Shown: positions 1 through 51,534 of the stretch, piece by piece
How positions within the stretch are numbered: position 1 is the first letter of the stretch
How the letters are laid out: every line of letters starts with the position of its first letter
Sequence record: OQ850291
Source: Escherichia phage vB_EcoS_ULIM2
Reading direction: 5' to 3' (one strand)
DNA length: 51,534 nt
Translations under genes and position numbers: made by a program
Notes under the pieces: generated by a model
The model's input: only the letters and a program-made list of their open reading frames with translations
What the model was told of the DNA's origin: nothing
Database searches by the model: none

Positions 1-127
1 GATTGATGGCATTCGTCATGTTGTCGTTGATGCTCGCCCGGTTCAGGCGTCACTGGAACCAATCGCCTATCGTCCAGTATTGCGGAGGGTATCAGTAGGT
101 GGCTAATTATCAAATTCGTAGATTTCA
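1..127. repeat. Terminal direct repeat; 1-127 is identical to 51408-51534 (circular or terminally redundant genome)
   Basis: Exact 127-nt identity between the two window ends, read directly; the upstream extent is unknown because the window begins here. Confidence 0.9.
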
Positions 128-542
128 AGGTGAGATTGATGCGTGGATTAAGGCCGCAGAAAGCACGTTAGAACATGCTATTGAGATATTCGTAAGGGAT
201 GTTCACAACGCTCTTGTTAGTCGATCTCCTGTCGATACAGGTCGTTTCAAGGGCAACTGGCAGATAACCTTTAACGAGATACCTAACCACGCATTAAACC
301 GATACGATAAAACTGGCGGTGTCGTCAGAGGTGAGGAGCAAGCCAAAACTTATGGCATGTTCAGCCGTGGCGGCGCGATAACATCAGTTCACTTTTCAAA
401 CATGTTGATTTATGCAAACGCTCTTGAGTACGGTCATTCACAGCAAGCACCGAGCGGCGTTGTCGGTCTTGTGGCATTAAGGCTGAGATCATATATGGCT
501 GACGCAATCAAGCAGGCAAGGAGACAGCAAAATGCACTATGA
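99..542 (+). CDS. Putative head-tail joining/neck protein (147 aa)
   Basis: GTG start with GGAGGG 9 nt upstream, overlapping the stop of the preceding gene; lies between capsid and major tail genes. Function inferred from position only. Confidence 0.4.
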   Translation: MANYQIRRFQGEIDAWIKAAESTLEHAIEIFVRDVHNALVSRSPVDTGRFKGNWQITFNEIPNHALNRYDKTGGVVRGEEQAKTYGMFSRGGAITSVHFSNMLIYANALEYGHSQQAPSGVVGLVALRLRSYMADAIKQARRQQNAL

Positions 543-7883: not shown

Positions 7884-10800
7884 ATGATTCAAAAAGTGAT
7901 AAGCGGATCTAAAGGTGGGTCACAGAAGCCTCATAACCCAGTTGAGATGGAAGACAATCTAATCTCAATCAACAAAATCAAGATCCTGTTGGCTGTATCT
8001 GATGGTGAAATTGACGAAACATTCAACCTAAAGCAGTTGATGTTTAACTCAGTTCCGGTGCAAAACGAGGATGGATCGTTCAACTTCGAAGGGGTAAAGG
8101 CTGAATTCAGGCCGGGAACTCAGACGCAGGAATACATCAAGGGAATGGAAGATAGCTCTAGTGAGGTAACTGTAAATCGTGAGGTTACTACCGATAACCC
8201 ATACACGATCTCAGTAACCAACAAAACGCTGTCGGCAATCCGTATCAAGATGTTCATGCCTCGCGGCGTACGAATTGAAAGTAACGGTGATAAAAATGGC
8301 GTAAGAGTTGAGTATGAGGTGCAACAAGCTGTTGATGGCGGCTCGTTTGAGACGGTGCTCACCGATGTAATCGAAGGCAAAACAATGTCAGGTTACGATC
8401 GAAGCAGACGTGTAAACCTACCTAACTTCAACAATCAGGTGATATTCAGAGTGGTTCGGAAAACTCCAGACTCTAACGACTCGAACGTTGTTGACGCGAT
8501 TCAGGTAAAGAGCTATGCCGAGGTGATTGATGCTAAATTCCGTTATCCACTGACTGGTCTTCTTTTTGTCGAGTTTGATTCGAAGATGTTCCCAAACCAG
8601 TTACCTACGATCTCAATTCGTAAGCGCTGGAAGATTGTAAACGTTCCGTCAAACTATGATCCAGAATCACGAACTTATAACGGAAATTGGGATGGAACTT
8701 TTAAGAAGGCATGGACGAATAATCCGGCTTGGGTGCTTTATGACCTGATGATTAATCAGCGTTATGGACTGGATCAGAAAGAGCTTGGTATCGCTGTAGA
8801 CAAATGGGCGCTCTATGAGGCGGCGCAATATTGCGACCAGATGGTCCCTGACGGTAAAGGCGGCACTGAGCCTCGCTACCTTTGCGACGTGATAATTCAG
8901 TCACAGACTGATGCGTACAAGGTGATTCGAGATATTTGCTCAATCTTCCGTGGAATGAGCTTTTGGAATGGTGAAAGCATTTCGGTAATCATCGACAGGC
9001 CGCGTGAACCTGCGTACATCTTCACTAATGACAACGTGGTTAATGGTGACTTCTCCTACACGTTCGCAAGCGAAAAGAGCATGTACACGACGTGTAATGT
9101 GATGTTTGATGATGAACAGAACATGTATCAGCAGGACGTTGAGCCAGTATTCGATCGTGAGGCTACTCTACGGTTTGGTAACAACGTAACGAGCATTACA
9201 GCGATCGGTTGCACACGTCGAAGCGAGGCAAACCGACGCGGGAGGTGGATTCTGAAAACTAACCTCCGCAGCACTACGGTAAACTTCGCTACCGGACTTG
9301 AGGGCATGATCCCGACAATCGGAGATGTTGTGGCAATAGCTGATAATTTCTGGTCAAGTAACTTAACGATGAACCTGTCAGGGCGTTTGCTCGAAGTATC
9401 CGGTAGTCAGATTTTCCTGCCGTTCCGCGTTGATGCTCGCGCAGGTGACTTTATCATCTTAAATAAGCCCGATGGCAAGCCTGTGAAGCGCACAATCTCA
9501 AGTGTTAGTGCGGATGGTAAGACTATAGAGGTTAACATCGGCTTTGGCTTTCCTGTGAAGCCTAACACGGTATTTGCAATCGACCGTACCGACATTGCGT
9601 TGCAGCAGTACGTCGTGACCAAAATCGACAAGGGTGATGATGATGAGGAGTTTACCTACAAGATTACGGCGGTTGAGTACGATCCTAACAAGTATGATGA
9701 GATTGATTACGGAGTTAACATCGACGACCGACCGACGAGCATTGTTGAACCAAATCAGATACCTAGACCGGAAAATGTGCAAGTGTCCTCAGAGTCGAGA
9801 ATCGTTCAGGGGATGAGCGTAGAAACGATGATTGTTAGCTGGGATAAAGTGCCGTACGCAGTTTTCTATGACGTCCAGTGGCGAAAGGATAACGGCAACT
9901 GGCAAAATGTACCGCAGACGGCAAATAAAGAGGTATACGTTGAAGGTATTTACGCTGGCAACTATCAGGTTCGCGTTCGCTCTGTCGCTGGTTCCGGTAC
10001 GACTTCAGGATGGTCAAATATCGTAGCTGCGACGCTGACGGGTAAACAAGGTGAGCCGGGCCGACCGATTAACCTTACAGCTACGGATGATGTTGTTTTT
10101 GGTATCCGTACAAAATGGGGGTTCTCTGATGGTTCTGGAGATACGGCCTATACAGAGTTGCAACAGTCACCGGATGGAACAGTGGATAACGCAAGTTTGC
10201 TTTCTTTGATTCCGTACCCGCAGCATGAGTATTATCACTCACCGATGCCTGGAGGGAATATCGTGTGGTATCGGGTAAGGACGGTTGATAGGATCGGTAA
10301 CGTGTCTCAGTGGACTGATTTTGTCAGAGGTATGGCATCAACAAACGTTGACGATATCATTGGAGAGATTTCTGTCGATATCGAAAACTCGCCGGGTTAC
10401 GAGTGGCTTGTTGATAACGCAACCGACAACGCGGCGCAGAACGCAGCGAACGCAGAGGCAGCAATTGAGAACGCGCTAGCCAATGACAAAGACGCGATCT
10501 ACATGAAGAAGGAGAACGGAAAGCGAAAAGCTGAGTACACGAAATCACTTAAACTTATTGCTGATGAGACGCAGGCGCGAGTGACGTCGATCGAGCAATT
10601 GAAGGCAAGTTTTGGAGATCAGATTAGCGCGAGCAATAGTGAATTGCGCGAGGTTATCGCAACCGAGACTGAGGCACTATCTCGTGAGATTGACCAGCTT
10701 AAGGCTCAGATTGGAGACGATATTCAGGCAAGTTTAACAGATATCCGCAAGGCTATAGCAAACGAGACTGAGGCTAGAACGCAAGCTGATCTTACTTTGA

Positions 10801-11336
10801 GCGCAAAACTTGGGGAAAACGAGGCGGCACTTGCTCAAAAACTTGATTCGTGGAGTAATGCGAGTTCTACCGGGGCGATGTACGGCGTTAAGCTCGGGCT
10901 GAAATACAACGGGCAGGAATACAGCGCAGGAATGGCTATGTCCCTGATTGGTTCAGGCGCGGCTGTTAAGGCTCAGATTCTTTTTGAGGCTTCACGATTT
11001 GCAATCATGACCGGGATGAATGGAAGGACACAATACCCGTTTGTTGTTGAGAATGGTCAGGTTATTTTAAGTAGCGCGATCATTAAAAACGGATTCATCA
11101 CCAACGCAATGATTGGCGAGTTTATCCAGTCGAACAACTTCCAGTCCGGGAAGGAAGGGTGGAGAATCACGAAGAGCGGCGGCTCAGAGTTTAATAACGT
11201 AGTGGTAAGGGGTGAACTTTACGCAGCAGAAGGTAGGTTTGCATTCAACGGAACGGGTAACACCGTTCAGATTAACAATAACGGAATCACGGTAAACTTA
11301 CCCGGCGGCGGGAAAGTTGTAGTGGGGAGGTGGTAA
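7884..11336 (+). CDS. Tail tip / host-specificity protein (lambda J-like, 1150 aa)
   Basis: Size and position after the I-like gene; fibronectin-III-like segment; last gene of the tail block before a terminator. Confidence 0.8.
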   Translation: MIQKVISGSKGGSQKPHNPVEMEDNLISINKIKILLAVSDGEIDETFNLKQLMFNSVPVQNEDGSFNFEGVKAEFRPGTQTQEYIKGMEDSSSEVTVNREVTTDNPYTISVTNKTLSAIRIKMFMPRGVRIESNGDKNGVRVEYEVQQAVDGGSFETVLTDVIEGKTMSGYDRSRRVNLPNFNNQVIFRVVRKTPDSNDSNVVDAIQVKSYAEVIDAKFRYPLTGLLFVEFDSKMFPNQLPTISIRKRWKIVNVPSNYDPESRTYNGNWDGTFKKAWTNNPAWVLYDLMINQRYGLDQKELGIAVDKWALYEAAQYCDQMVPDGKGGTEPRYLCDVIIQSQTDAYKVIRDICSIFRGMSFWNGESISVIIDRPREPAYIFTNDNVVNGDFSYTFASEKSMYTTCNVMFDDEQNMYQQDVEPVFDREATLRFGNNVTSITAIGCTRRSEANRRGRWILKTNLRSTTVNFATGLEGMIPTIGDVVAIADNFWSSNLTMNLSGRLLEVSGSQIFLPFRVDARAGDFIILNKPDGKPVKRTISSVSADGKTIEVNIGFGFPVKPNTVFAIDRTDIALQQYVVTKIDKGDDDEEFTYKITAVEYDPNKYDEIDYGVNIDDRPTSIVEPNQIPRPENVQVSSESRIVQGMSVETMIVSWDKVPYAVFYDVQWRKDNGNWQNVPQTANKEVYVEGIYAGNYQVRVRSVAGSGTTSGWSNIVAATLTGKQGEPGRPINLTATDDVVFGIRTKWGFSDGSGDTAYTELQQSPDGTVDNASLLSLIPYPQHEYYHSPMPGGNIVWYRVRTVDRIGNVSQWTDFVRGMASTNVDDIIGEISVDIENSPGYEWLVDNATDNAAQNAANAEAAIENALANDKDAIYMKKENGKRKAEYTKSLKLIADETQARVTSIEQLKASFGDQISASNSELREVIATETEALSREIDQLKAQIGDDIQASLTDIRKAIANETEARTQADLTLSAKLGENEAALAQKLDSWSNASSTGAMYGVKLGLKYNGQEYSAGMAMSLIGSGAAVKAQILFEASRFAIMTGMNGRTQYPFVVENGQVILSSAIIKNGFITNAMIGEFIQSNNFQSGKEGWRITKSGGSEFNNVVVRGELYAAEGRFAFNGTGNTVQINNNGITVNLPGGGKVVVGRW

Positions 11337-11343
11337 AACATAA

Positions 11344-11365
11344 GGGGCCAATCGGCCCCTTTTTT
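11344..11365. terminator. Terminator between convergent J-like gene and minus-strand gene
   Basis: GGGGCC-aatc-GGCCCC followed by TTTTTT. Confidence 0.6.
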
Positions 11366-12329
11366 AATACATGTTTGGAAGAACTATCAACGGAGATTGA
11401 ATTGCTATGTTCCTGTTAGGCATCACGAATTGCTGGCGAGAGTAGTTGCCAACAACCTTATTTTTAGCAACTCTTACCTTGTTTCCAGCCATTCTGATCC
11501 CGTTCATCCTTACGTGGTTGTATCCTCCATTATTTTCAATAAGCGCTCCACAGTATGATAACTGAATCAAGCTGTTTCCTATATCCTGATCCCCTGTACC
11601 GATATTAATTACGCGATTGTAAACGAATGGTTTATTTACTGTAGAAAAAGTAACCTGACCTTGCTTGTTGGTCATGGTTATACCGTTACCGCCGCGAGGG
11701 GGAGTGTTATTGAATATTACCAAATCCATAGTAACAGAAGCCGTCACATCATCCCTTCCACCGTAGGATGCATTCCTTACTGTGATGTTTGAACCGTCAA
11801 ATCCGACGCTTACATTAGGATCATCCCATCTTGCGAATGGTATACCTCCAACTGGCAATCTCATGTTACCATTAACAGTTATTCGATTTGAATATTGGCA
11901 CGTCATTAATTTTGCCACGTTTGATATGGCGGTGAAATCAGTTGAGTTTGCAACAAGCAGACCCTCATTCCTTGTGCCTACTGGTAATATCTCCATGACA
12001 GTACCAGCCCATTGCGGTAAACCTTCGTAGGCGCTTAGTGCATCATCACCTCTGATTATCACTCCGTTGTTACCATTCCTTGACACTGTAGTAACATAAA
12101 ACGGATCTGGTATGACAAGTGTCTGGTCGAACACCTCAATAACGTCAACAGGCTTTGTGAAGACAACAACAACCTGAGATCCCGGAGTCAATGGAGTATT
12201 TATAGTCAACGTCTTATTTGATTGCGCCCTCTGGTTGAAGTTCGCGCAGAATGAAGGGGCGCGAAGACCAGCCGTGATTTGCATCGCAGGACGCCCGTCA
12301 TTGTAATTTACATATATTCCCTCCCCCAT
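11364..12329 (-). CDS. Hypothetical protein, possibly tail-associated/host-range (321 aa)
   Basis: ATG at 12329 with AAGGAG RBS formed by the last codons of the upstream lipoprotein gene; Gly/Asn-rich repetitive sequence. Function not established. Confidence 0.45.
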   Translation of the reverse strand: MGEGIYVNYNDGRPAMQITAGLRAPSFCANFNQRAQSNKTLTINTPLTPGSQVVVVFTKPVDVIEVFDQTLVIPDPFYVTTVSRNGNNGVIIRGDDALSAYEGLPQWAGTVMEILPVGTRNEGLLVANSTDFTAISNVAKLMTCQYSNRITVNGNMRLPVGGIPFARWDDPNVSVGFDGSNITVRNASYGGRDDVTASVTMDLVIFNNTPPRGGNGITMTNKQGQVTFSTVNKPFVYNRVINIGTGDQDIGNSLIQLSYCGALIENNGGYNHVRMNGIRMAGNKVRVAKNKVVGNYSRQQFVMPNRNIAIQSPLIVLPNMY

Positions 12330-12331
12330 AA

Positions 12332-12562
12332 TTACCACTCCTTAGTTTTAACTGACACCTTACCGCTAAAGTTTCCCTGGTTGTCGTCTGATGAAAGACC
12401 TTTGAATCGCATGTCAATCTCGCCAGACGGAATCTTATTGCCATCAACGAATCGCATCATGCAAGATCCGTAAGCGTAAGTAACGCAGTCTCCATTTTTA
12501 AGATTCTGGGCGCAACCAGTCAGGATGAATGCAGCAGCAATAATGGTGATTAACTTTTTCAT
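12332..12562 (-). CDS. cor: Small outer-membrane lipoprotein, Cor-like superinfection exclusion candidate (76 aa)
   Basis: Signal peptide with lipobox LTGC; placement next to tail genes as for Cor in T1-like and lambdoid phages; identity by analogy only. Confidence 0.45.
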   Translation of the reverse strand: MKKLITIIAAAFILTGCAQNLKNGDCVTYAYGSCMMRFVDGNKIPSGEIDMRFKGLSSDDNQGNFSGKVSVKTKEW

Positions 12563-12591
12563 TTGTATGTCCTCGTCGTTAGTGTGATTGC

Positions 12592-12620
12592 ATTGTATGT
12601 CGCATTTACTTTTATTGCAA
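12592..12620 (-). promoter_or_regulatory. Sigma70-type promoter for the lipoprotein operon (TTGCAA-17-TACAAT)
   Basis: Minus-strand -35 TTGCAA (12615-12620), 17-bp spacer, -10 TACAAT (12592-12597), then GAGGA RBS and ATG at 12562. Confidence 0.5.
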
Positions 12621-12641
12621 TAGCACGATTACAATTTTTTC

Positions 12642-12810
12642 GTGTAACAAGTGTCTATTTTTGTAACCGGAACGGGTGTTACAAAATCCACCCCATCCGA
12701 CCGCAGAGAGATATGATAAAAACTCTATATAATATATATAGATAGATAATATTTAATTTTAGCTTTATATATATAATTATTGTTGTGTAACAGTTGTCTA
12801 CCGTGTAACA
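12642..12810. repeat. Iteron-like repeats in an AT-rich divergent control region
   Basis: GTGTAACAAGTGTCTA (12642-12657) and GTGTAACAGTTGTCTA (12785-12800), further GTGTAACA at 12803, inverted repeat TTGTAAC-N10-GTTACAA (12661-12685), alternating TA tract 12724-12781. Confidence 0.5.
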
Positions 12811-13029
12811 GGTGATTTGATTGATTCGTCAAATTTCTATCACATATGTTCAAAATTTAATCAATCTTGATTCTATTTGTAGGTATCTCTGTATTTCTAA
12901 GAAAAAGCTGTTACAAGTATTACGCAATAGACACCACACAAAAATAGACTTAAGCCATTGATTACGTTGATGCTGGTTGTAACTTGAGCGATATAGACAC
13001 GCAATTACACACAAATTACATGTATCCGA

Positions 13030-13057
13030 TTGACTAAACGCTGTTAATGGCTATAAT
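13030..13057 (+). promoter_or_regulatory. Sigma70-type promoter for the recombination operon (TTGACT-16-TATAAT)
   Basis: TTGACT at 13030-13035 and TATAAT at 13052-13057; leader TTCATCGTAAACGAAGGAGA precedes the ATG at 13089. Confidence 0.6.
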
Positions 13058-13088
13058 GGATTCATCGTAAACGAAGGAGATAAACGCA

Positions 13089-14153
13089 ATGTTCCAAGTA
13101 TTCACGTCAAGCCAGCTTTCCAATGACGAGTATCACAGCAACGAAGGTTGGGCGGCAGAGTATGTAAGCGGATCGAGTCTTGCAGAAATCTATCAGACTT
13201 GTCCGGCTAACTGGCGATTCAAGAAGAACGAGACAACGAAAGCTCTGGAGTTCGGCACTCAGTCACACACCAACTTTGAGAGTCGCGATCTGTTTACTGC
13301 AACGTATGCTCGCTGCCCTGCTCCGTCAGAGTTTAAGGATCTGATTACTTCACAAACCGCTCTGGCTGCAAAATTAAAATCTTTTGGCCTGAAAGGTACA
13401 TCAGGAAAGCAGTACCCGGACCTCATAAAAATGATGGTTGATTGTGGTGAAGAACTCAACGTTCAATACCTCATTGAACTGATTGCTGAGGCTGAGGCGC
13501 GCGCTGAAGGAAAGAAATTGGTTGACGCTGACAAATACGATGCTTGCATGAAGATGAGAGCCATCCTTGAGCAGAATCCCGATCATGAAGCGTGCATTAA
13601 CAGCGAAACAGCTCAGCGTGAAATCTCAATCTTCGGTGAAATATCCGGAGTCAAGGTTAAGGTTCGACTCGATCACCTTGACTACAAAGAGAACGTGCCA
13701 GGTCGTGTGCTGACCGGTTATGATGAAAATGGTGATCCGGTATTCGAAGACGTAATTTTCCCGGAAGCACTAATTATCACAGACTTCAAAACTACGATGA
13801 GCGCCAACCCGTTAGAGTTCCCGAGACTGGCATACAATCACGGCTATTACCTGAAGATGGCATTGCAGCATGACCTGCTACGTCGCGCAATCCAGGCTGG
13901 CGCTTTTGAAGGAAACTTCCCGGAAGATATTCCGATCGTAGTTCGATTGCTTGCGCAGGAGAAAAAAGAGCCTTATATCGCACTGGCTTACCGTATGACA
14001 ATGGAGCAAATCAGGATCGGTCGTAACCAGTACATTAGCGTAGTCCACACTTACAAGGCTTGCTCTGAAATGGATGTTTGGCCTGGATACGCTGGCGACG
14101 CAAGCGAGATCGAACTTGAAACGCCATCATGGGTGCGTTACCAAAATAAGTAA
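13089..14153 (+). CDS. Putative PD-(D/E)XK exonuclease (recombination, 354 aa)
   Basis: IITDFKT nuclease-like motif; located directly upstream of Erf and SSB genes. Confidence 0.5.
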   Translation: MFQVFTSSQLSNDEYHSNEGWAAEYVSGSSLAEIYQTCPANWRFKKNETTKALEFGTQSHTNFESRDLFTATYARCPAPSEFKDLITSQTALAAKLKSFGLKGTSGKQYPDLIKMMVDCGEELNVQYLIELIAEAEARAEGKKLVDADKYDACMKMRAILEQNPDHEACINSETAQREISIFGEISGVKVKVRLDHLDYKENVPGRVLTGYDENGDPVFEDVIFPEALIITDFKTTMSANPLEFPRLAYNHGYYLKMALQHDLLRRAIQAGAFEGNFPEDIPIVVRLLAQEKKEPYIALAYRMTMEQIRIGRNQYISVVHTYKACSEMDVWPGYAGDASEIELETPSWVRYQNK

Positions 14154-14227
14154 ACGGCACAAATAGCTAAACAAATAATTAATGAGGTGTTATAATGCAC
14201 CTCATACACCAATCAGGAGAAGTTAAG

Positions 14228-14875
14228 ATGCAATTATCACCAGAAACAAACGAAATCCTTCCTGCCCTGTTTAACGCTCGCAACAAATTTGCGAAAGCAA
14301 AGAAGGACGCAAAAAACAATCACCTGAAAAATTCATACGCAACTCTTGATGCGATGATGGCAGCGGTTAGTCCGGCGCTAACCGACAACGATATTATGAT
14401 CCTGCAATCAATGCTTGATACAAGCACGGAAACGACCTTCCATCTTGAGACGATGTTGATTCATAAATCCGGGCAGTGGGCCAAATTCTTCATGATGATG
14501 CCGATTGCAAAACGCGATCCGCAAGGCGTAGGTTCCGCAATGACGTATGCTCGACGTTACTCATTAGCCGCAGCGCTGGGGATTAGCCAGAGTGATGACG
14601 ATGCTCAGCTTGCAGTGAAATCTGTCAAGGACTGGAAAAAAGAACTTGATGCGTGTGAAGATATCGAATCACTGAAAGAGGTATGGGCTAACGCTTACCG
14701 CCAGACGGACACGGCGAGCAAGTCAATCATTCAGGATCACTACAACGCATTAAAGGCTAAGTTTGAGATCGGTAAAGCTCGCGGCATTCGACCTGCACAA
14801 CCAGAACAGAAAAAACAGGTTGAAGCAACGAGCGCGAAGCCTGTAAAATCTCAATCAATCACAAACTTCGAATAA
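14228..14875 (+). CDS. erf: Erf-family single-strand annealing protein (215 aa)
   Basis: NARNKFAKAKKD...NSYATLD and GSAMTYARRYSLAAALGISQSDDDA resemble conserved Erf blocks (P22 Erf TSSYARKYCLNGLFGIDDAKD); ATG at 14228 with AGGAG RBS. Confidence 0.7.
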   Translation: MQLSPETNEILPALFNARNKFAKAKKDAKNNHLKNSYATLDAMMAAVSPALTDNDIMILQSMLDTSTETTFHLETMLIHKSGQWAKFFMMMPIAKRDPQGVGSAMTYARRYSLAAALGISQSDDDAQLAVKSVKDWKKELDACEDIESLKEVWANAYRQTDTASKSIIQDHYNALKAKFEIGKARGIRPAQPEQKKQVEATSAKPVKSQSITNFE

Positions 14876-14921
14876 TCATCAGGGCGGCTTCGGTCGCCCA
14901 TAAATTTTAGGAGAGAAAATT

Positions 14922-15347
14922 ATGCATATTATCACTGGCGAGATCCGTAAAGAACCTAAGATTCTTGAGCGTAACGGCGGCAATACTTACATCATTGAGC
15001 TGGCAGAAAGCTACAAACCGCGTGATGGCGATCGTGAATACACCAACTACACATTCTTTTTTAGCGATGGTGGAAAGCATGGCCTTGCTGACTGGTATCG
15101 TGAAGCGTTCCAGGTTGGTCGAGTAATCTCAGTATCGTGCGAGACTTTGAAGATCTCATCAAGAGAGCATAACGGAACGATCTACAATTCTTTGCAGGCG
15201 GCTGATTTCCCTAAGCTGATATTCAGCCAACGAGGCCAAAGCAATCAGCAACAACGAGCACCACAGCAACAGCAGCAGCGCACTCAACATCAGTCACAAC
15301 CTCAACCAAATCCTCAGTCAACATTCGACGACGACATTCCATTCTAA
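14922..15347 (+). CDS. ssb: Single-stranded DNA-binding protein (141 aa)
   Basis: Q/P-rich linker and acidic C-terminal tip DDDIPF, the canonical SSB tail. Confidence 0.8.
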   Translation: MHIITGEIRKEPKILERNGGNTYIIELAESYKPRDGDREYTNYTFFFSDGGKHGLADWYREAFQVGRVISVSCETLKISSREHNGTIYNSLQAADFPKLIFSQRGQSNQQQRAPQQQQQRTQHQSQPQPNPQSTFDDDIPF

Positions 15348-15353
15348 TAAAAA

Positions 15354-15380
15354 GCCCCGCATCAGCGGGGCATATTTTTA
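15354..15380. terminator. Bidirectional terminator between SSB and the convergent tail fibre gene
   Basis: GCCCCGC-atca-GCGGGGC with A-rich and T-rich flanks on either side. Confidence 0.6.
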
Positions 15381-17738
15381 CTTGCTCTCAAGTAATGATT
15401 TTACAATCAACTTCAATTCCTCAACATCATTCCTTAATGAAATAATTTCTTCCTCCTGCTCTTTACACACTTGCACCGCGTATGCGGCAATAGCACCATA
15501 ATCCACCTGGAAGAAGCGCTGACGCCCTACCAGTTCCTCGCCGTCTTGCGTTGGCCCCGCAAGGTGTTCGTAGTCTTCGAACGTACTCACCGCTTCCGGC
15601 ACAACGTCCATTACTTCCTGCGCAATAACCCCGGCGTAAGGCATGCCGTCTTTTTTCATGGTGTAGGTATAACCGCCCATCTTAGCAAGGCCAGCGCGGG
15701 CGTTCTCGATCGGCTTGATGTTATCCTTCAACTCGCGGTCAGACGACTGGTTTACCGTCGTACAGTTTACCGTTCCGTTAACGTTCATCTGTCTAGTGCC
15801 GTTGCCGTTATACTGGGCGTAAAAAAGCCACCCCGGACCATCTTCAAGCCCAAACTCAATAACCGACGCTCGATCTGACCCGTTGCCCCACAATTTGAAG
15901 GTTGCAGGGTGTGACGAGTTGCCGTCGTTAAGCATTTTGAAATACTTGCCACTTGGTCGACTGATCTCCAAGCTCGTCGCTTGAACGTATGCTTTTCCCG
16001 CGAAATTCTTAGTTCCGAGTACGACGCCGTCAGTTATCAATTCAACTTTAGAAGACGTTATATCGTTCAGGAATATCGCGCTCGTCCCGGTGTCCTTCCC
16101 TAAAAACCAAAGACGTTTTCCTGCGGAGTTGTACCCTGTTACGTGCAGTGGTTGGTTGTTTGTTGCGGCGGTGCCGTCGATACGAAATCCTCCATTGACT
16201 GTCGTAACTTTAATGCTAGGTACGGTCATAGCAAAAGTGCCACTGGCGGCAAGTCCATTATACGCGATCAGCTTGTTGTCATATGCAAGCTCACCATTGT
16301 CCCTTAATTGCAAGAATTTATTAGATGCCGAGTTGTGAATAACTACATCATTGGCGCCAGGTTCAATAGTTATGATCTTTCCGTCAACGGAAGCTCGCAC
16401 CGCAGGTCCAGTAATTACTCCGGAAAAAGTCGGCGACGACCCCGCGTTATACAATTCGTACCACTCTGACCAATTTCCAGTTGCCCCATTACTAATCCAG
16501 CGCATCCACCGACGCCCGTCTAAGTATGTTGTGTAAGTCTGCACGCAGCTTGTCACGACGTTAGCACCAGTACGCTGCACCAGCAAGCAACCAGCCGAGG
16601 CGACTGGATAGTTACGCTCAGGGGTGGCGTTCGACGACATGGACTGAAAGTAAAATCCAGCCTTATCCCCTTTCAATACGTTAAGGTCTTCGCTTACCAA
16701 CGTCGCCCGTCTTTCATGCATTGCCTGAAGGTTGGCGCGCGCTCCCTGGTCGTTAGATGCTCCCGTCCCGCCGTCCGCGATCGCCACGTCCCCGTTTGAC
16801 CCCAGCTTAGCCAGCTCGATAGCGCTCACATTCCCCGAGGAGCCGTTGATAGCGTTATTGTTTCCCGAGAAAACCTTCACGCGAGAGGTCTGGAAGTCAA
16901 CGTTAAACGCAAAAAATGTGTCACCAGCGCCACCGCAAATACCCGGACCGTATTTGAACGGGGTCATTTGCCCGGATGGAAACTGACTTATATCGTCAAC
17001 TCGCCAAAAACCGCCTTTGACCGAATCGCGCAACCTTTTTAGCATATCAGCAACGCTTGTTGGGGCGTTGATAGTGGCTCCAACTTTATCAACCTTTTTT
17101 GACGCATCAGCGCTATTCGCGAATTGCTCAGCTTCGTCTCGAAATCCTTTAGCCTGGTCTTTCGCGGTTATGGCCTGCGATCTAGCTGTCTCAGCGGCGG
17201 TCTTTGCGCTGTTGGCGTTCGTCTCACTGGTCTTTGCTGCATTCTTGCTTTGCTCTGCCGATGTTGCAAATTGACTTGCGGCATCACGGCTTGCAGCGGA
17301 TGCGTCGCGAGCAAGCTCAGCTTGATTCTGCGCAGCTTCTGCGGCTGATTTGTTCGCCTTAATTTCCTCAACGATACGGTTAAGGTTATCCATATCCAGA
17401 CTCGCAATGATATCCATTGCCCCGGCAATCTCAGTCTCTTTGCTCTGGTAGTACCGAAGCGTCTCAGCAACGTTTTGAGCCAACCCGTTAACGGTCAATG
17501 AATCGTTAAGCAAGATTACATACTTACCGTCAGCGGCAGTCTGACCATCCGTAGAGATAGCCTTTAACTCTGTGTCGCTCACAATATCGCTGATTACCGC
17601 CAGCTTAATTGGTTGCTCCAGGAATACGATAGTTGCACCGACTCGAATCAAAGCAAGCTGATCTTTCCATTTTGTGTCGGTTCCGTGAACCGTGCCGTCT
17701 GCATCCATTGATGCTGTACCGCGTCTATATAAAGCCAT
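15378..17738 (-). CDS. Tail fibre protein with C-terminal intramolecular chaperone domain (786 aa)
   Basis: Ala/Ser/Gln-rich coiled N-terminal region; C-terminal SSDRELKDNIKPIENARAGLAKMGGYTYTMK resembles the peptidase S74 autocleaving chaperone domain; ATG at 17738 with AAGGAG. Confidence 0.65.
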   Translation of the reverse strand: MALYRRGTASMDADGTVHGTDTKWKDQLALIRVGATIVFLEQPIKLAVISDIVSDTELKAISTDGQTAADGKYVILLNDSLTVNGLAQNVAETLRYYQSKETEIAGAMDIIASLDMDNLNRIVEEIKANKSAAEAAQNQAELARDASAASRDAASQFATSAEQSKNAAKTSETNANSAKTAAETARSQAITAKDQAKGFRDEAEQFANSADASKKVDKVGATINAPTSVADMLKRLRDSVKGGFWRVDDISQFPSGQMTPFKYGPGICGGAGDTFFAFNVDFQTSRVKVFSGNNNAINGSSGNVSAIELAKLGSNGDVAIADGGTGASNDQGARANLQAMHERRATLVSEDLNVLKGDKAGFYFQSMSSNATPERNYPVASAGCLLVQRTGANVVTSCVQTYTTYLDGRRWMRWISNGATGNWSEWYELYNAGSSPTFSGVITGPAVRASVDGKIITIEPGANDVVIHNSASNKFLQLRDNGELAYDNKLIAYNGLAASGTFAMTVPSIKVTTVNGGFRIDGTAATNNQPLHVTGYNSAGKRLWFLGKDTGTSAIFLNDITSSKVELITDGVVLGTKNFAGKAYVQATSLEISRPSGKYFKMLNDGNSSHPATFKLWGNGSDRASVIEFGLEDGPGWLFYAQYNGNGTRQMNVNGTVNCTTVNQSSDRELKDNIKPIENARAGLAKMGGYTYTMKKDGMPYAGVIAQEVMDVVPEAVSTFEDYEHLAGPTQDGEELVGRQRFFQVDYGAIAAYAVQVCKEQEEEIISLRNDVEELKLIVKSLLESK

Positions 17739-17814
17739 AGTATAAACTCCTTAAGTAAATAGCACGAATTGCTAAGCACTGATTTTATCATTGTGCTATG
17801 AGTCTTGCAATGGT

Positions 17815-17840
17815 CAACAAAAAACCGCCCGAAGGCGGTT
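17815..17840 (-). terminator. Leftward terminator after the primase-like gene
   Basis: CCGCC-cgaa-GGCGG hairpin with a U-run on the minus strand, immediately after the stop at 17839. Confidence 0.55.
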
Positions 17841-18774
17841 AGAGCAGGTCACTTGCTGAGAATAATTTGGCCTGCATTCCTGAACGGTATCCTCCAGGAT
17901 TCGGTATGATTATTTTTAATTGTCGGTCGTCTGCCATGTACAAGGTATCCTTGTCTGAAGGTTCGCACGCCACCCTTACTTCTCGATCACCTTTATACCT
18001 GTATGCAACCATTTCGAGGTTTTCAGGGGTGAAGCAGGCCCATACCTCTTGCTTTGTGTGAAATGCAATATGCTGAGCATCAATCCAGTTAAGGCATAAG
18101 TAGATCGCCTTTTCAGTTTTACCAGTCACGGCAACCGAACAACTCGTATATTTCTTCGCGTAAAATGACTCCCTCCCTTCCTCATCAATAATCAAAATAT
18201 TGCAAAACTCGTCATCAAGCCCATCCTCATGCACAAGTTGACACGGTATAGTGTGAAATACCGACTCACCGCCATCCTCGCTACGTTTTACGCCAACGTC
18301 GAACGATTCAGTGGGTAGAGACTCAAATATGCTTAGAGGCGTGTTTACGCGCTTCTCTGTGCGCTCCATAACTTTCATCACTGCTTCATGGTCTGCCATC
18401 ATAACATTGACGCCAGACACCGGAGTTCGGCGCGCTTTTTCATTGGCCTTGACAATGTATTCCTGCGGAACCTTTCCGAGAAATCTCCCCAGGATGTTTA
18501 TACATTCTCTGTACGGCATACCAGTTAATTTCATCAGCCAGCCAATACCAGAGTCGTTACCGCATGAGTTGCAGATCGCACCGCCGTCGCCCGGGGTGTT
18601 CAGGTTATCAGTCCAGCGAAAGCGGTCTTTACCGCCGCAGTTTGGGCAGGGTTGGTGCTTCTTATTAAAAACATCATTCGGCAATCCGCAGATTGATTGG
18701 AAAGCCTCGCGCCATAACCCCTTCATGTACGGTAAAACGTCCTCTTTCTGAAACATCATAAATTCTTCGTTCAC
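17839..18774 (-). CDS. Putative DNA primase-like protein with zinc ribbon (311 aa)
   Basis: CPNCGG-(16)-CNSCG Cys4 motif near the N-terminus; GTG start; adjacent to helicase. Catalytic motifs not confirmed. Confidence 0.4.
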   Translation of the reverse strand: MNEEFMMFQKEDVLPYMKGLWREAFQSICGLPNDVFNKKHQPCPNCGGKDRFRWTDNLNTPGDGGAICNSCGNDSGIGWLMKLTGMPYRECINILGRFLGKVPQEYIVKANEKARRTPVSGVNVMMADHEAVMKVMERTEKRVNTPLSIFESLPTESFDVGVKRSEDGGESVFHTIPCQLVHEDGLDDEFCNILIIDEEGRESFYAKKYTSCSVAVTGKTEKAIYLCLNWIDAQHIAFHTKQEVWACFTPENLEMVAYRYKGDREVRVACEPSDKDTLYMADDRQLKIIIPNPGGYRSGMQAKLFSASDLL

Positions 18775-18797
18775 TTCCAGATCTCCAAAATAAAAAA

Positions 18798-18826
18798 CGC
18801 GTAGAAGGATGTTAACCCGCTACGCG
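18798..18826 (-). terminator. Leftward terminator/attenuator between the HTH gene and the primase-like gene
   Basis: 7-bp stem CGCGTAG/CTACGCG with 15-nt loop, U-run on the minus strand. Confidence 0.45.
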
Positions 18827-18835
18827 TCGTTTGTT

Positions 18836-19288
18836 TTAACTAAAAATGCTATTGGTCGTTCCGATATCTTCCTTCTTCACAACCCGCATGAATTTCTTGT
18901 TCTTGCATCGCTTCTCAAGGCACTTGCCGTTACCATCAAACTTGAGGTCGAATCTCAGCCATGCTGCGCGGTATCCTTTACACCCCTGTCGGCGGTAAGC
19001 GCGATGCGCAGCCTCAGCACCTTGCCACGAAATCATGTTGCGTTCTTTCCAGCCTTGCACCGTCTGATTTGTTACTTTTAGTGCCTTTGCGCATGCCGCA
19101 GGGCCACCATAATATTCGATAAGCGCATCAAGTCGTGCTCGCAATCCAGCGCGTGTTTCTTCTTTATGAATATAGAATCCGCAGCGCTGTCGTGGCTTTT
19201 TGTCTTTACCGCGTCGAGTTCCGTTGTTACCATTGATGTGACGTTTATCGATTTCACCAGTTGACTCCGCGATGCGTTGAATACTCAT
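18836..19288 (-). CDS. Putative DNA-binding protein with Cro/YdaS-like helix-turn-helix (150 aa)
   Basis: AKALKVTNQTVQGWKERN resembles Cro/YdaS-type HTH; basic termini; a palindromic box lies in its leader. Confidence 0.45.
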   Translation of the reverse strand: MSIQRIAESTGEIDKRHINGNNGTRRGKDKKPRQRCGFYIHKEETRAGLRARLDALIEYYGGPAACAKALKVTNQTVQGWKERNMISWQGAEAAHRAYRRQGCKGYRAAWLRFDLKFDGNGKCLEKRCKNKKFMRVVKKEDIGTTNSIFS

Positions 19289-19301
19289 CTTGATTCTCCT
19301 A

Positions 19302-19344
19302 TAGCACTTTTTGCTAAAAACGTTTACTGTATGCCGTGTATTAT
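19302..19344 (+). promoter_or_regulatory. Box-type promoter for the helicase operon
   Basis: TAGCAC (19302-19307), TTGCTA (19311-19316), 22-bp spacer, TATTAT (19339-19344), enclosed by inverted repeat CGTTTAC/GTAAACG. Confidence 0.5.
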
Positions 19345-19368
19345 AGCGTAAACGCTACAATGATTCAA
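19340..19368 (-). promoter_or_regulatory. Sigma70-type promoter for the HTH gene, face-to-face with the helicase promoter
   Basis: Minus strand TTGAAT (19363-19368), 17-bp spacer, TATAAT (19340-19345); the -10 overlaps the plus-strand -10 by 5 bp. Confidence 0.5.
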
Positions 19369-19381
19369 AGGATTAATAGCC

Positions 19382-21400
19382 GTGACAATGAACATTAAAA
19401 AACAGATCGCATTACTTGGCGAGGACTACATAAAGCGAACTCAGGAGCGATTCACTGTCGGTGAGGTTGTTCCGTATCCGTATCAGGTTGTTGCTTACGC
19501 TGAGATCGCAAAACGCCTATCAAATTACGAGCATCCATTCTTTGTTAAAGCGTCAGTGTCTGCGGGTAAGACCATCATTTTTGCTATGGTTGCAAAGCAG
19601 TGTCAAAAAATGGGATTGAAAATGCTTGTGCTGGCACGTCAGGGTGAGATTGTCGATCAGGATAGCGAAGAGATCGACAACTTCGGGGTAACTAACTCCA
19701 TCTTCTCGGCGTCACTTGGAATAAAATCTTGCTACTTCCCGATCGTTGTCGGCTCTGAGGGTACTGTTGCAAATGGCTTAAACAATGAGTTGGCTGATTT
19801 TGTCCCGCACGTAATCGGAATCGATGAATGTCATCAGGTAGATTGGGAAGACCTTGCGCAAGCCATCGAAGGCAAGGAAACGATGGAACAGATGAGGGGC
19901 GAGAAAGGGAAAATTATCATGGACGGGGAGATTCCTCTGATTGGTAATGATGGAAAGCCTCTTCTTGGAACAAAGCGAAGCCAGTACACGATCGTAATCA
20001 TGGAGATGATGCGTCGATGTAAAGAGGTTCACGGGCATGACCTCAGAATATTTGGAATGACGGGATCTGAATTTAGGGGAGTTGTTCCAATCCTGGTTGA
20101 AAATCCAAAAGCATTGGGATTCTGGCGTGAGCGCGTAACTGATATCGACACAAACTATCTGATTGAGTTCGGCTCTGTTGTGCCGACGATATTCGGTTCA
20201 ACTGACGGCGTACACTACGATCTGGATAAGTTCAAGGCATCAAGCGAGGACGGCGTACAGGACTTTACAGAGAAAGATATGAAGGCAATGGAAGATGAGA
20301 TCCTTCATGATAAATCTCTTACTCAGCGAATCATGCAAATGGTCGCCAAAAAGGCTGAAGAACGTAACGCGGTTCTGATTACATGCGCTGGGGTGCGTCA
20401 CTGTAAAGAGGCGGCGGCGGCACTACCTCCAGGAAGCACCTATGCAATAATCACTGGCGACACAGACAACAAATCGCGCAAGAAGATTCTTGACGATGTA
20501 AGGGCCGGAAAAATTAAATACACCTTTCAGGTAATGGCGCTCACTACTGGTGTTAACGTTCCAAATTGGGATTTCAGTGTCATACTCCGCAAAATAGGGT
20601 CGCTCACACTGTTGATTCAACTTTTGGGTAGGGGTATGCGTCTGCTTAAATCCTGGCAGGTTGCTGAGGGAATGGTTAAGCAGGACCATCTTGTATGGGA
20701 TTTTGCAGGTACGATGGATGAGCTGGGTCAGCTTTATTTCGATCCGATACTTGAGCAGGCGCAATTCCAGAAGCGTTTTGAAAACGGCAAAGATCCGAAA
20801 ACATGTCCGAAATGCGGTTGCGTAAATAGCTTCTATGCTCGACGATGCGTTAATGTCATTGATGGTGAGCGTTGCGATCACTTCTGGACTTCTCAGATTT
20901 GCGAGGACCAGGTTGATGAGCGTACAGGAAAAATCCTTGTTAAAGGGTGTGGTGCAGAGAATGATGTTGTGGCACGAGTCTGTCGTTGCTGTGATGTTTC
21001 TCTTGTCGATCCTAACCTGAAGTTATCCGGTAAGGCGTACACTAAGAATGACTGGTATGAAGTAAAGAATTTTGAAGTTACTCTAACGAAGAACCAGAAA
21101 GGCATAATATACAAATACACGCTGATTAACGACGAAGGTGATGAGTTTAAGGCGTATGAAAAATTCTTCCCTGAGTCCGACTCTAAGATTTGCGGTACAC
21201 TATGGAAAACGAAAGGCGTACTTCCTCATGTGTCAGATCCTAAAATGCGTCGCTACTTTATCGGAATGAAGAATGCCATCAAGATCGTGCAGTACGCACA
21301 TCATATTGCTCACCCGGTGCGCGTAACTCATCGTCGCAACCAGAAGAAAGAGGATATTATCTCACGCAAAGATTTCGGCATGGAGGATATACCGCAATGA
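19382..21400 (+). CDS. SF2 (DEAH-type) DNA helicase with C-terminal Cys-rich zinc-binding region (672 aa)
   Basis: Motif I SVSAGKT, motif II GIDECH, motif III TGS, motif VI QLLGRGMR; several CxxC pairs near the C-terminus. Confidence 0.7.
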   Translation: MTMNIKKQIALLGEDYIKRTQERFTVGEVVPYPYQVVAYAEIAKRLSNYEHPFFVKASVSAGKTIIFAMVAKQCQKMGLKMLVLARQGEIVDQDSEEIDNFGVTNSIFSASLGIKSCYFPIVVGSEGTVANGLNNELADFVPHVIGIDECHQVDWEDLAQAIEGKETMEQMRGEKGKIIMDGEIPLIGNDGKPLLGTKRSQYTIVIMEMMRRCKEVHGHDLRIFGMTGSEFRGVVPILVENPKALGFWRERVTDIDTNYLIEFGSVVPTIFGSTDGVHYDLDKFKASSEDGVQDFTEKDMKAMEDEILHDKSLTQRIMQMVAKKAEERNAVLITCAGVRHCKEAAAALPPGSTYAIITGDTDNKSRKKILDDVRAGKIKYTFQVMALTTGVNVPNWDFSVILRKIGSLTLLIQLLGRGMRLLKSWQVAEGMVKQDHLVWDFAGTMDELGQLYFDPILEQAQFQKRFENGKDPKTCPKCGCVNSFYARRCVNVIDGERCDHFWTSQICEDQVDERTGKILVKGCGAENDVVARVCRCCDVSLVDPNLKLSGKAYTKNDWYEVKNFEVTLTKNQKGIIYKYTLINDEGDEFKAYEKFFPESDSKICGTLWKTKGVLPHVSDPKMRRYFIGMKNAIKIVQYAHHIAHPVRVTHRRNQKKEDIISRKDFGMEDIPQ

Positions 21401-23678: not shown

Positions 23679-24830
23679 ATGTCACAAGCTAAAATCACTA
23701 CCGAGCAACTCGTCGAAGAGCGCATGAACGGCCTTACACTTCGAGAGATCGCGGAAAAGTACGGTATGCACATTCGCACTGTCGAGGCGCGTCACGCAAA
23801 ACTTGCAAAAGAAGGCCACTTCCACGGTAACGAGCATGTTGCTAAAAACGTGCCGGAAGGATTCATGGTAAAAGGTACATCAACGATGATTCGCGGAGAT
23901 GGGACCGAGGTAGTTCGCTGGGTTAAGACCGATCAGGACCGTGAGAAGATTGCGGCAATGATGGAAGCGGCGCGTATTGCATTCTGTGAAGACCTGCCTC
24001 GAGCAAAACCAACTGAGCTACTAACATCGCAAGGACTTACGACAGCGATGGGTAAGCTGGCGCTCTATCCGGTATTCGATCTCCATATTGGCGCGCTTGC
24101 TCATAAGCATGAGTGCGGAGAGAACTACTCTACCGACGTAGCGGAAAAAGTGCTTGGCGACTTCTTCAATTATGCGATCGATATTGCGCCGAACGCAGAG
24201 AAGGCTGTTCTGTTAATCGGCGGCGACTTCCTTCACTCTGACGGCCTTGACGCTGTTACCCCGGCAAGTGGTCACGTTCTAGATCAGGATTCACGATATG
24301 CGAAATTAGTGCATGTTGCGATTCGTTCGGTACGCCGAGCCATCGACAAAATGCTTATGAAACACAAAGAAGTCGAGGTTCAGGTTATCGAAGGGAACCA
24401 CGATCAGTCTGGGATGATTTGGCTGCGCGCTGCAATGTCGGCATATTATGAAGACGAGCCGCGAGTATTCGTTGACGTTAGTCCTATGATTCTGCATAAG
24501 ACTCGTTGGGGAAATACCTTGTTGGGATACACTCACGGTCACACTATGAAAAAGGCAGACACGCGACTTGCGGCAATGGCGGCAGATTTCCGATCAGACT
24601 TCGGTGAGAGCAAGTATGTGTATACTCATAGCGGTCACTGGCATCACCAGACAATCACTGAGCACTCACTCGGTATTGATGAGGTTCACGGCCAGTTAGG
24701 CGCGAAAGATGCATACGCAGCACGCGGAGGGTGGCGCTCATATCGCCAGGCGGCTGTAATTGTTTACGATAAGCAGTTTGGGGAAATCGGTCGTTTCATC
24801 TATCGTCCAGAAATGACAGGATCGCACTAA
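23679..24830 (+). CDS. Calcineurin-like metallophosphoesterase (383 aa)
   Basis: Phosphoesterase motifs in order: DLH, GDFLHSDG, GNHD, GHT, GHWHH. Confidence 0.6.
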   Translation: MSQAKITTEQLVEERMNGLTLREIAEKYGMHIRTVEARHAKLAKEGHFHGNEHVAKNVPEGFMVKGTSTMIRGDGTEVVRWVKTDQDREKIAAMMEAARIAFCEDLPRAKPTELLTSQGLTTAMGKLALYPVFDLHIGALAHKHECGENYSTDVAEKVLGDFFNYAIDIAPNAEKAVLLIGGDFLHSDGLDAVTPASGHVLDQDSRYAKLVHVAIRSVRRAIDKMLMKHKEVEVQVIEGNHDQSGMIWLRAAMSAYYEDEPRVFVDVSPMILHKTRWGNTLLGYTHGHTMKKADTRLAAMAADFRSDFGESKYVYTHSGHWHHQTITEHSLGIDEVHGQLGAKDAYAARGGWRSYRQAAVIVYDKQFGEIGRFIYRPEMTGSH

Positions 24831-24864
24831 TTGATAAAAACGCCCGAATGGATTCGGGCATAGT
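24823..24864 (+). promoter_or_regulatory. Box-type promoter
   Basis: TCGCAC-N3-TTGATA (24823-24836), 22 bp, CATAGT (24859-24864) within inverted repeat CGCCCGAATGG/GATTCGGGC; leader CATCGAAAACGAAGAGG. Confidence 0.45.
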
Positions 24865-28763: not shown

Positions 28764-28767
28764 TTGG

Positions 28768-29184
28768 TTATAAGTATTTGGCCTCAAAGGTTGTGCCGTC
28801 AGCAATACTAAAACCCACCTCTTCGCGGAATAAGGTCCAGCGGCAACCATCCTCATCAAAGATGTAACCAGCCACTCCACCGAGAGCGCGACCGCTTTCC
28901 ACCTGGTAGCGTTTGCCAACTTTGAATGATTTTTTCATTGGGTTGCGATGGTCAAGCCCGGTGCATTTTAGTGTCTTCGTTTTCAGTTCTACGAATGTTG
29001 CATTAAGCGGATTACCCAATGAGTCTTCACCATGTGCGGTCATTTTATCAAGCACATGCCAATGCTTAGGCGCGAACTGAACTGAGATATTACCCCCATC
29101 GTCTATGCGTCCTTTATAAAGTTTGTTTGCTTCAAAGAATAATTTCATGGTGGATGAGGTGCATTTGAGTTTGATACTTTTCAT
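28768..29184 (-). CDS. Hypothetical protein (138 aa)
   Basis: ATG at 29184 preceded by the conserved AACCAATCAGGAGA leader. Confidence 0.5.
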   Translation of the reverse strand: MKSIKLKCTSSTMKLFFEANKLYKGRIDDGGNISVQFAPKHWHVLDKMTAHGEDSLGNPLNATFVELKTKTLKCTGLDHRNPMKKSFKVGKRYQVESGRALGGVAGYIFDEDGCRWTLFREEVGFSIADGTTFEAKYL

Positions 29185-29476: not shown

Positions 29477-29480
29477 TAAA

Positions 29481-32865: not shown

Positions 32866-32909
32866 ATAATAGCCAATCCTCCGCTACTGGTCGTTAGCAA
32901 AAAATGCTA
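32866..32909 (-). promoter_or_regulatory. Box-type promoter (leftward) for the PP-loop gene
   Basis: Minus strand TAGCAT-N4-TTGCTA (32895-32909), 23 bp, TATTAT (32866-32871). Confidence 0.45.
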
Positions 32910-33099
32910 TTCCAATAATTGCTCATTATTCCATCAATTGTGGAATATGTGGAATAATTCTGATTGTTATTGATTGCGAATGACGAAACGTGATTATTGC
33001 ATGATGTGCAACAGTTGGTTGATTTGTTGATGAGAACGCAATGATTGTTAGAGGGAGGATCTGGTGTTGCCCGGCTCGCCTGGTAGTCATCTCCATTTT

Positions 33100-33114
33100 T
33101 AGCAAAAAGTGCTA
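33100..33114 (-). promoter_or_regulatory. Second palindromic box upstream of the PP-loop gene, no obvious -10
   Basis: TAGCAC-N3-TTGCTA on the minus strand; the position 22 bp downstream is not -10-like. Confidence 0.35.
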
Positions 33115-33391
33115 TCGATTACGATTATGCTTGATTGTGTGTTAATCCATGTATATGATTTGCATAAATCGCAATCGTAGACAAAATTACACCAAATTAC
33201 GCCCTATAATATACATATAGATATATGTATATATATAATATATAAGTGTTTTTTTATTTATATATATAGATACTATTATTTGTAATATGGCTGTATAGCG
33301 TGTCTACTATGTTAATCGTTGGATGCTCTGGTTATGATATTCATGTTTATATATACAGTAGTTTTATCGGCTCATATTTATATGGGAAAAG

Positions 33392-33418
33392 CGATTAACA
33401 CGATTAACACGATTAACC
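33392..33418. repeat. Three tandem copies of a 9-bp unit (CGATTAACA)
   Basis: CGATTAACA CGATTAACA CGATTAACC read directly, inside the AT-rich divergent region. Confidence 0.6.
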
Positions 33419-33442
33419 ACACTTAAAATCGGCTCGCGAGCA

Positions 33443-42163: not shown

Positions 42164-42688
42164 ATGAGTGAACCTAAGAACGCTCCCGTAGTCCAGGGTG
42201 GTAATTTCAAAGAGCTATACAAGAAAAAATTCGGCACTGTTCTTGCGAAGAACCGGGCAATGACGCCTGAACAATTGTTCGATCTGTCAGTGAAGTACTT
42301 TGAATGGGCCGAGGACAACGCGATCAAGGCGTCAGAATCAGCCAGCTTTCAGGGTGGCGTTTATGAATCGCTTGTTCATAAACCGCGCGTCTTCACCTGG
42401 ACCGGGTATCGACTATTTATCGGTGCAAGCGAGGCCGCAATCATTAAGTGGAAGCGTGAGGAAGAATACAGTGAGGTTATGGAGTTCGTGGAATCCGTAA
42501 TCAACGAGCAAAAATTTCAGCTTGCCGCAAACGGCGTTATTAACGCCTCATTTATCGGCAAAGATCTCGGAATAGACAAGCCAGCTTCAATCAACATCGA
42601 AAACTCAGCAGCTTCAGCGTCGACCACAGTCGCCACTACTGAGGACGCAATGAAAGAGGCTGTAAACAGTATTCTTGAAATGCTTTAA
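42164..42688 (+). CDS. Terminase small subunit candidate (174 aa)
   Basis: Immediately upstream of the large terminase gene; AAGAGGA RBS. Function from position only. Confidence 0.5.
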   Translation: MSEPKNAPVVQGGNFKELYKKKFGTVLAKNRAMTPEQLFDLSVKYFEWAEDNAIKASESASFQGGVYESLVHKPRVFTWTGYRLFIGASEAAIIKWKREEEYSEVMEFVESVINEQKFQLAANGVINASFIGKDLGIDKPASINIENSAASASTTVATTEDAMKEAVNSILEML

Positions 42689-50731: not shown

Positions 50732-51142
50732 ATGGATCAAGAAACATTAAACAAAGTGGTTGAGCAAATGCGAAAGCTGGTTCCGGCACTTCGTAAGGTT
50801 CCAGACGAAACGCTTTATGCGTGGGTAGAAATGGCTGAGCTATTTGTATGTCAGAAGACCTTTAAAGATGCATACGTCAAGGCGCTTGCTCTTTATGCAT
50901 TGCACCTTGCTTTCCTTGATGGGGCGCTAAAAGGTGAAGATGAGGATCTTGAATCGTACTCACGACGCGTTACGTCATTCTCCCTGAACGGTGAATTTAG
51001 CCAGACTTTCGGAGAGGTGACGAAGAACCAGTCAGGAAACATGATGCTTTCGACGCCGTGGGGTAAGATGTTCGAACAGCTTAAAGCGCGACGCCGTGGT
51101 CGATTCGCATTAATGACAGGACTCCGTGGAGGATGCCACTAA
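50732..51142 (+). CDS. Putative head-tail connector/head completion protein (136 aa)
   Basis: ATG at 50732 with AGGTGG RBS; position after the capsid genes. Confidence 0.4.
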   Translation: MDQETLNKVVEQMRKLVPALRKVPDETLYAWVEMAELFVCQKTFKDAYVKALALYALHLAFLDGALKGEDEDLESYSRRVTSFSLNGEFSQTFGEVTKNQSGNMMLSTPWGKMFEQLKARRRGRFALMTGLRGGCH

Positions 51143-51513
51143 TGAACTACTCACAGATTGAAAGGATGGCTCGCAAAGGCGTTGCTTTCTTCACCGATCC
51201 GTCAAGACCTATGAACCTGATAAAACAAGGTGAATACGGATATGATGAAAACGGATTTGAGATCCCACCAATGGAACAGGTTATTCCAATATCCGGCGCG
51301 ACGCGAAGACCTAACGCGCGTGAGATTGACGGTGAAACTATCCGCGCCTCAGATATTTTGGGGATCTTCAATAATGATCATGAAATAAACGAAGGTGACT
51401 ATATAGAGATTGATGGCATTCGTCATGTTGTCGTTGATGCTCGCCCGGTTCAGGCGTCACTGGAACCAATCGCCTATCGTCCAGTATTGCGGAGGGTATC
51501 AGTAGGTGGCTAA
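51142..51513 (+). CDS. Putative head-tail adaptor protein (123 aa), crosses the repeat junction
   Basis: ATG at 51142 with GGAGG RBS; its last 106 nt lie inside the terminal repeat and are duplicated at positions 1-106. Confidence 0.4.
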   Translation: MNYSQIERMARKGVAFFTDPSRPMNLIKQGEYGYDENGFEIPPMEQVIPISGATRRPNAREIDGETIRASDILGIFNNDHEINEGDYIEIDGIRHVVVDARPVQASLEPIAYRPVLRRVSVGG

Positions 51514-51534
51514 TTATCAAATTCGTAGATTTCA

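Follow-up and report, generated by a model that had tools for sequence, protein, structure and literature searches.

The 127 nt shared by the two ends of the window, i.e., the whole stretch of 51,534 nt that was analyzed, are best explained as a de Bruijn-graph artefact, left on an assembly path that was closed by headful-type, T1-like DNA without a single fixed end; a probability of roughly 0.93 is assigned to this reading. The 127 bp are not the terminal redundancy of this phage, which is located elsewhere; among T1-like phages, the reported values of terminal redundancy are roughly 1 kb or larger. Removal of one of the two copies leaves a unit genome of 51,407 bp. The overlap is therefore a correct but ordinary finding, which holds nothing new, as this type of artefact is already known. 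Its practical meaning is that trimming of the second copy prevents genome length, gene count and the neck genes from being misreported, and that the contig is usable as a complete genome, which for comparisons should be re-opened according to the T1 convention, at approximately position 32,996 (Table 1).

Table 1. Positions of the end overlap, the neck genes at the join, the packaging genes and the candidate pac region in the window
Feature	Position	Strand	Comment
End overlap, first copy	1..127		Last 106 nt of neck gene, including the stop, and first 29 nt of the next gene
End overlap, second copy	51408..51534		Redundant; trimming gives the 51,407-bp unit genome
Join-crossing gene, 123-aa head-to-tail connector / head-closure protein, homologue of T1 CPTT1_034	51142..51513	+	PHROG and T1 match
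Next neck gene, 147 aa, tail completion / Neck1	99..542	+	PHROG 169 at 1e-51; 98.6% identical to T1 17256-17699
Candidate pac / first-headful-end region, noncoding, AT-rich, ~540 nt	32900..33440		Homology to T1 record start
Terminase small subunit TerS, 174 aa (longest ORF from 42140)	42164..42688	+	PHROG 606 at 1.5e-60; Pfam GP3_package (P22 gp3-like) at 8e-10; 98.3% identical to T1
Terminase large subunit TerL, 522 aa	42727..44295	+	PHROG 38 at 1e-116; Pfam Terminase_6C nuclease domain; 99.0% identical to T1
Portal, 427 aa	44350..45633	+	Pfam Phage_portal_3 at 4e-89; 99.8% identical to T1

The end overlap and its length

The initial annotation had claimed that the window ends are identical, and a comparison of prefix and suffix confirmed this base for base (127/127 nt). 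Across the whole window, no prefix longer than 127 nt equals a suffix. The 127-mer is present at exactly two places in the window and absent from its reverse complement, and a repeat scan of the window identified the end overlap as the sole long exact repeat, with a spacing of 51,407 between its copies; the remaining repeat families are at most 82 nt long and at most 91% identical. The probability that an exact match of 127 nt would arise by chance is approximately 1e-76.

A length of 127 nt equals the maximum k of SPAdes and metaSPAdes, for which a largest k value of 127 has been described (PMC5478533). End duplicates of exactly this size, equal to the k-mer size, have been found in SPAdes contigs of Psychrobacillus phage Spoks (PMC12007190) and of Butyrivibrio phages (PMC7372960), and were removed in both studies. 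In those circular phage contigs, as in the window, the contig end repeats the contig start exactly over 127 bp, with an arbitrary break point; in contrast to the published cases, the assembler of the window and its k are deduced from the overlap length alone. A SPAdes-type assembler with a final k of 127 would be expected to print a path that closes on itself as a contig whose last bases duplicate its first k-mer, and such a closed path would be broken at an arbitrary point. An exact k-sized overlap at an arbitrary point in a coding region therefore points to the print-out of a closed graph path and not to a feature of the DNA.

The join in related phages and the genes that cross it

The first and last positions of the window map to T1 17158 and 17284, respectively, which places the join within the neck gene module of T1. 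An 889-nt join sequence, in which the 127-mer was included once, could be aligned as a single piece in 60 deposited genomes with 80-99% identity; it corresponds to positions 16812-17700 of T1 and is covered unbroken by 59 further records. The position of the match differs among the records (17.5, 47, 8.4, 31, 25.8 and 14 kb, and others), which indicates that depositors opened these genomes at many arbitrary points. For example, the record of phage AV106 opens at the window equivalent of 21823|21824 and is contiguous at that point, and the record of phage Chapo opens at the equivalent of 32,996, as in the T1 convention. Neither Chapo nor AV106, which are the longest deposited relatives, carries an untrimmed end overlap.

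Metagenome contigs gave the same picture. The exact 123-aa and 147-aa proteins encoded at the join are adjacent in the 20 contigs displayed, which include metaSPAdes NODE_, MEGAHIT k141_, Logan and other contigs, and a 6-kb segment centred on the join aligned in one piece to each of these 20 contigs with 93-98.9% identity. The exact 123-aa protein is present in at least 23 public contigs. The join sequence is hence single-copy, contiguous and internal in all 80 comparators (60 deposited genomes and 20 metagenome contigs) and, as judged from these alignments, the join is an ordinary internal genome position and no real boundary. With the overlap length equal to the largest SPAdes k and the join internal in T1, 60 relatives and 20 contigs, the earlier claim that the window represents a circular assembly is well founded.

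The gene that was said to span the join does so, as the ORF at 51133-51513 crosses it and ends in a TAA stop at 51511-51513, which is equivalent to positions 104-106 of the first copy. The likely start of this gene is the ATG at 51142, which is preceded by GGAGGA as a putative ribosome-binding site and gives the 123-aa protein; on the circle, the gene occupies 51142-51407 plus 1-106. The protein matches PHROG 161 (head closure Hc1; 7e-23) and PHROG 169 (7e-25), and the gene is 99.2% identical to T1 16892-17263, annotated as "head-to-tail connector complex protein II". The 147-aa neck gene overlaps the 123-aa gene by 8 nt; its GTG start at position 99, equivalent to 51506, lies inside the end overlap, and its first 29 nt are therefore repeated at 51506-51534. 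Both genes match neck families, which agrees with the description in the initial annotation of an arbitrary start point inside a head-tail gene, and the pair is flanked by genes for a DUF4054 virion protein and a tail terminator.

The position of the overlap across these two genes bears on whether the 127 bp could be a genuine short DTR in the style of T7, T3 or SP6, with position 1 as a physical end. In such phages, an exact direct repeat of 100-250 bp is found at either end of the sequence, completeness tools count repeats of this kind as DTRs, and the perfect identity of the two 127-bp ends would fit this explanation. In T7-like phages the repeat is noncoding and located at conserved physical ends, and the terminase belongs to a different lineage. 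In the window, by comparison, the repeat is coding and extends across the 8-nt overlap of two neck genes, T1 as well as the deposited relatives and the metagenome contigs carry the sequence once, at an internal and contiguous position, the repeat is exactly as long as an assembler constant, and the terminase shares 99% identity with its counterpart in T1, which packages by a pac headful mechanism. Taking into consideration the coding character of the repeat, its internal single-copy state in relatives, its assembler-constant length and the headful-type terminase, a true 127-bp DTR is ruled out for practical purposes.

The closed path could also be the product of a mis-join, either a chimera of co-occurring T1-like strains or a path that is incomplete and was closed by a shared 127-mer. 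An exact look-up of the 786-aa tail fibre protein led to Logan contig SRR23097344_75 (40,843 bp), of which positions 29173-37533 are 100% identical to positions 12,378-20,738 of the window over 8,361 bp, indicating that the same phage is present in a public run. By arithmetic, this contig would span the window from approximately 9,068 to approximately 49,910, and it does not cross the join; a complementary Logan contig was not found. By the same arithmetic, the Logan assembly of this run would break on the two sides of the join, once within the J-like tail gene and once within the major capsid gene, which would be compatible with a mis-join, as would the fact that the genome is the longest of its group and that exact-protein look-ups gave no match on record for the J-like (1150 aa) and tape-measure (957 aa) proteins. 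Against this, T1 gene order and content are complete round the circle, the join and 3 kb on each side of it are contiguous in every relative examined, and the genome differs in length from T1 by discrete cassettes such as are common among T1-like phages. A mis-join is therefore considered very unlikely.

Packaging genes and the probable site of the first cut

The closure of the assembly path is attributed to T1-like packaging, since the sequenced DNA of this T1-like phage would have no single fixed end. [quoted passage not shown] In phage TLS, a submolar pac fragment was shown together with a series of three or four headfuls, each displaced by approximately 1 kb (PMC11447400). Moreover, PhageTerm gave no fixed termini for phage KanT1, and phage SU57 showed a circularly permuted restriction pattern and a circular map, without cos ends (PMC7718038). 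By homology to T1 and in line with this literature on T1 relatives, headful packaging, terminal redundancy and permutation are inferred for the phage analyzed here. T1-like replication would yield head-to-tail concatemers, on which TerS and TerL would make a first cut at or near the pac site; the DNA would then be reeled through the portal until the head is full, at slightly more than one genome length, and the next few headfuls would follow in series. The resulting virion DNAs would be terminally redundant and partly circularly permuted, and sequence reads would bridge all 51,407 positions, including the arbitrary join.

The headful call is based on the homology to T1, as an assembly graph would be closed in the same way by DNA with DTRs, by cos-ligated DNA or by truly circular DNA, and the 127-nt overlap alone cannot discriminate between packaging modes. 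Closure by a non-headful route, through a circular or replicative form, cohesive ends or a collapsed long DTR, would mean that the packaging inference is wrong. Any closed path yields a k-mer overlap, and PhageTerm analyses of T1-like phages have at times been ambiguous, with "type unknown" calls and several candidate ends. Set against this are packaging proteins 98-99% identical to those of T1, a TerS with a P22 gp3-type domain, and experiments on T1, TLS and SU57 that indicate pac headful packaging and exclude cos ends, which together make a non-headful route exceedingly improbable. The earlier claim of a terminally redundant, headful-packaged genome is thus supported, on the basis of homology, by the near identity of TerS, TerL and portal to those of a known pac headful packager. 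The overlap itself adds nothing new on packaging biology, and the headful mechanism represents knowledge inherited from T1.

Phage P22 provides a second point of comparison. TerS shares its gp3-type domain with P22, although there is no close sequence relation to P22 outside this domain, and the same mechanism would be expected in both phages, i.e., recognition of pac on concatemers followed by serial headfuls, with terminally redundant and partly permuted DNA as the result. The P22 pac site is located within the small-terminase gene, whereas in T1-like phages pac is placed in a terminal noncoding region approximately 9 kb from terS.

The counterpart of this region in the window was located by homology. 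The boundary T1 48836|1 corresponds to window 32995|32996, such that T1 position 1 maps to 32,996, and the circularised T1 junction (last 400 and first 700 nt) gave an unbroken alignment with 90% identity to window positions 32,890-33,694. The candidate pac region (Table 1) sits here, between the leftward and the rightward gene blocks. That terminal untranslated region has been described as the location of the pac site in T1 and in other T1-like phages (PMC7718038). Together with the convention followed in the T1 and Chapo records, this statement places the first packaging cut, with moderate confidence, near 33.0 kb of the window, which would be the likeliest area and lies approximately 18.4 kb upstream of the window start on the circle.

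Within the T1-start noncoding region, at 33,190-33,425, the window contains a TATATA-rich low-complexity tract (~33,205-33,300), which is nearly identical in T1, and three tandem CGATTAACA units at ~33,393-33,420. The tract and the CGATTAACA units may represent origin, pac or regulator-binding sequences; to our knowledge, no pac motif of T1 has been validated.

The unit genome exceeds all listed Tunavirus relatives (48,836-51,099 bp) in length, and despite this its capsid proteins are approximately 98-99% identical to those of T1, with 98.4% identity for the major capsid protein. For T1, the published packaged length is approximately 50.7 kb, or the redundancy approximately 6%. The combination of the longest genome with T1-like capsid proteins suggests that terminal redundancy would be small if headful size is conserved and may be unusually small, a point that speaks against the preferred reading. 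That redundancy is close to zero, as would follow from a T1-sized headful, is nevertheless regarded as unlikely. If it were true, the lineage would tolerate almost no redundancy, or its capsid would pack more DNA than that of T1, or the contig would contain a cassette that is absent from any single packaged genome.

Relationship to T1 and variable regions of the genome

In a megablast search against deposited phage genomes, the window matched T1-like coliphages and Shigella phages with approximately 90-93% identity over 86-93% of each half; the best matches were SA30RD, Chapo, SH6, Shfl1 and T1, and all best database matches were Tunavirus. No near-identical genome was found among the deposited phage genomes in this search. 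Relative to T1 (AY216660 / NC_005833), the window is circularly permuted and collinear; every T1 module is present once, and gene order and content match T1 round the whole circle, with no module missing or duplicated. Intergenomic similarity to T1 was approximately 0.80, with 85% of the genome aligned, a value that represents an own BLAST-based approximation and not the output of VIRIDIC itself. Judged by these sequence comparisons, the genome fits a new species-level relative of T1 within Tunavirus (Drexlerviridae), i.e., the same genus and a different species.

TerS, TerL, portal and major capsid protein are 98-99.8% identical between the two phages and the neck genes at the join 99%, and in both the conventional genome start is embedded in the same noncoding region. 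By contrast, the genome analyzed here is 2.6 kb longer than that of T1, lacks the three HNH genes of T1 and carries one HNH gene elsewhere, contains, beside the T1-start region, an extra 2-kb cassette in which a gene with a PAPS-reductase domain is found, and differs in its tail-fibre genes.

The gaps that correspond to the three absent T1 HNH endonuclease genes are located at ~24,815-24,857, 28,765-28,770 and 39,533-39,747. The single HNH_3 (+AP2-like) gene of the window (46,391-46,873) is inserted between the capsid morphogenesis and protease genes and differs from the HNH genes of T1. In related metagenome contigs, HNH genes are found at other sites, such as the terS-terL interval or the interval that separates tail genes L and K. 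Such shifting HNH sites are typical of homing-endonuclease mobility.

The cassette of approximately 2 kb without a T1 counterpart (30,902-32,889) adjoins the T1-start region; the ends of the T1 record map to 30.9-33.0 kb of the window, and copies of a promoter-like motif are found at the bounds of the cassette. It contains leftward ORFs, including one at 32016-32900 (- strand) with a PAPS-reductase domain (Pfam, 8e-08), for which an exact-protein look-up gave no match. Relatives carry a Dcm-like cytosine methyltransferase at this site. With a PAPS-reductase-domain gene in one phage and a Dcm-like methyltransferase in others, the cassette looks like a swappable DNA-modification or anti-defence locus.

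The host-range genes also differ from those of T1, at 10,650-12,562 and 15,378-17,738. The J-like protein (7884-11336) diverges from that of T1 at its C-terminal end, and a gene for a 324-aa DUF6453 protein (11364-12338, - strand) stands in place of the T1 genes downstream of J and is adjoined by a Cor-like lipoprotein gene (12332-12562, - strand). The 786-aa side tail fibre, which carries a Peptidase_S74 chaperone domain, is unrelated to that of T1 over most of its length.

A 17-nt motif, ATAGCAC-N3-TTG-N-TAA, was found at 25 sites in the window, compared with 0.1 expected. Examples include 19301-19317, 34447-34463, 37465-37481 and 40319-40335 on the + strand and 30883-30899, 31499-31515 and 33099-33115 on the - strand. 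The sites are mostly intergenic and oriented as the genes downstream of them, and they are often followed approximately 17 nt later by TATAGT or TATAAT; with this arrangement, the motif resembles a conserved phage promoter that has an upstream element. In phage TLS, 18 intergenic repeats of 21 nt have been described that form a similar set (PMC11447400).
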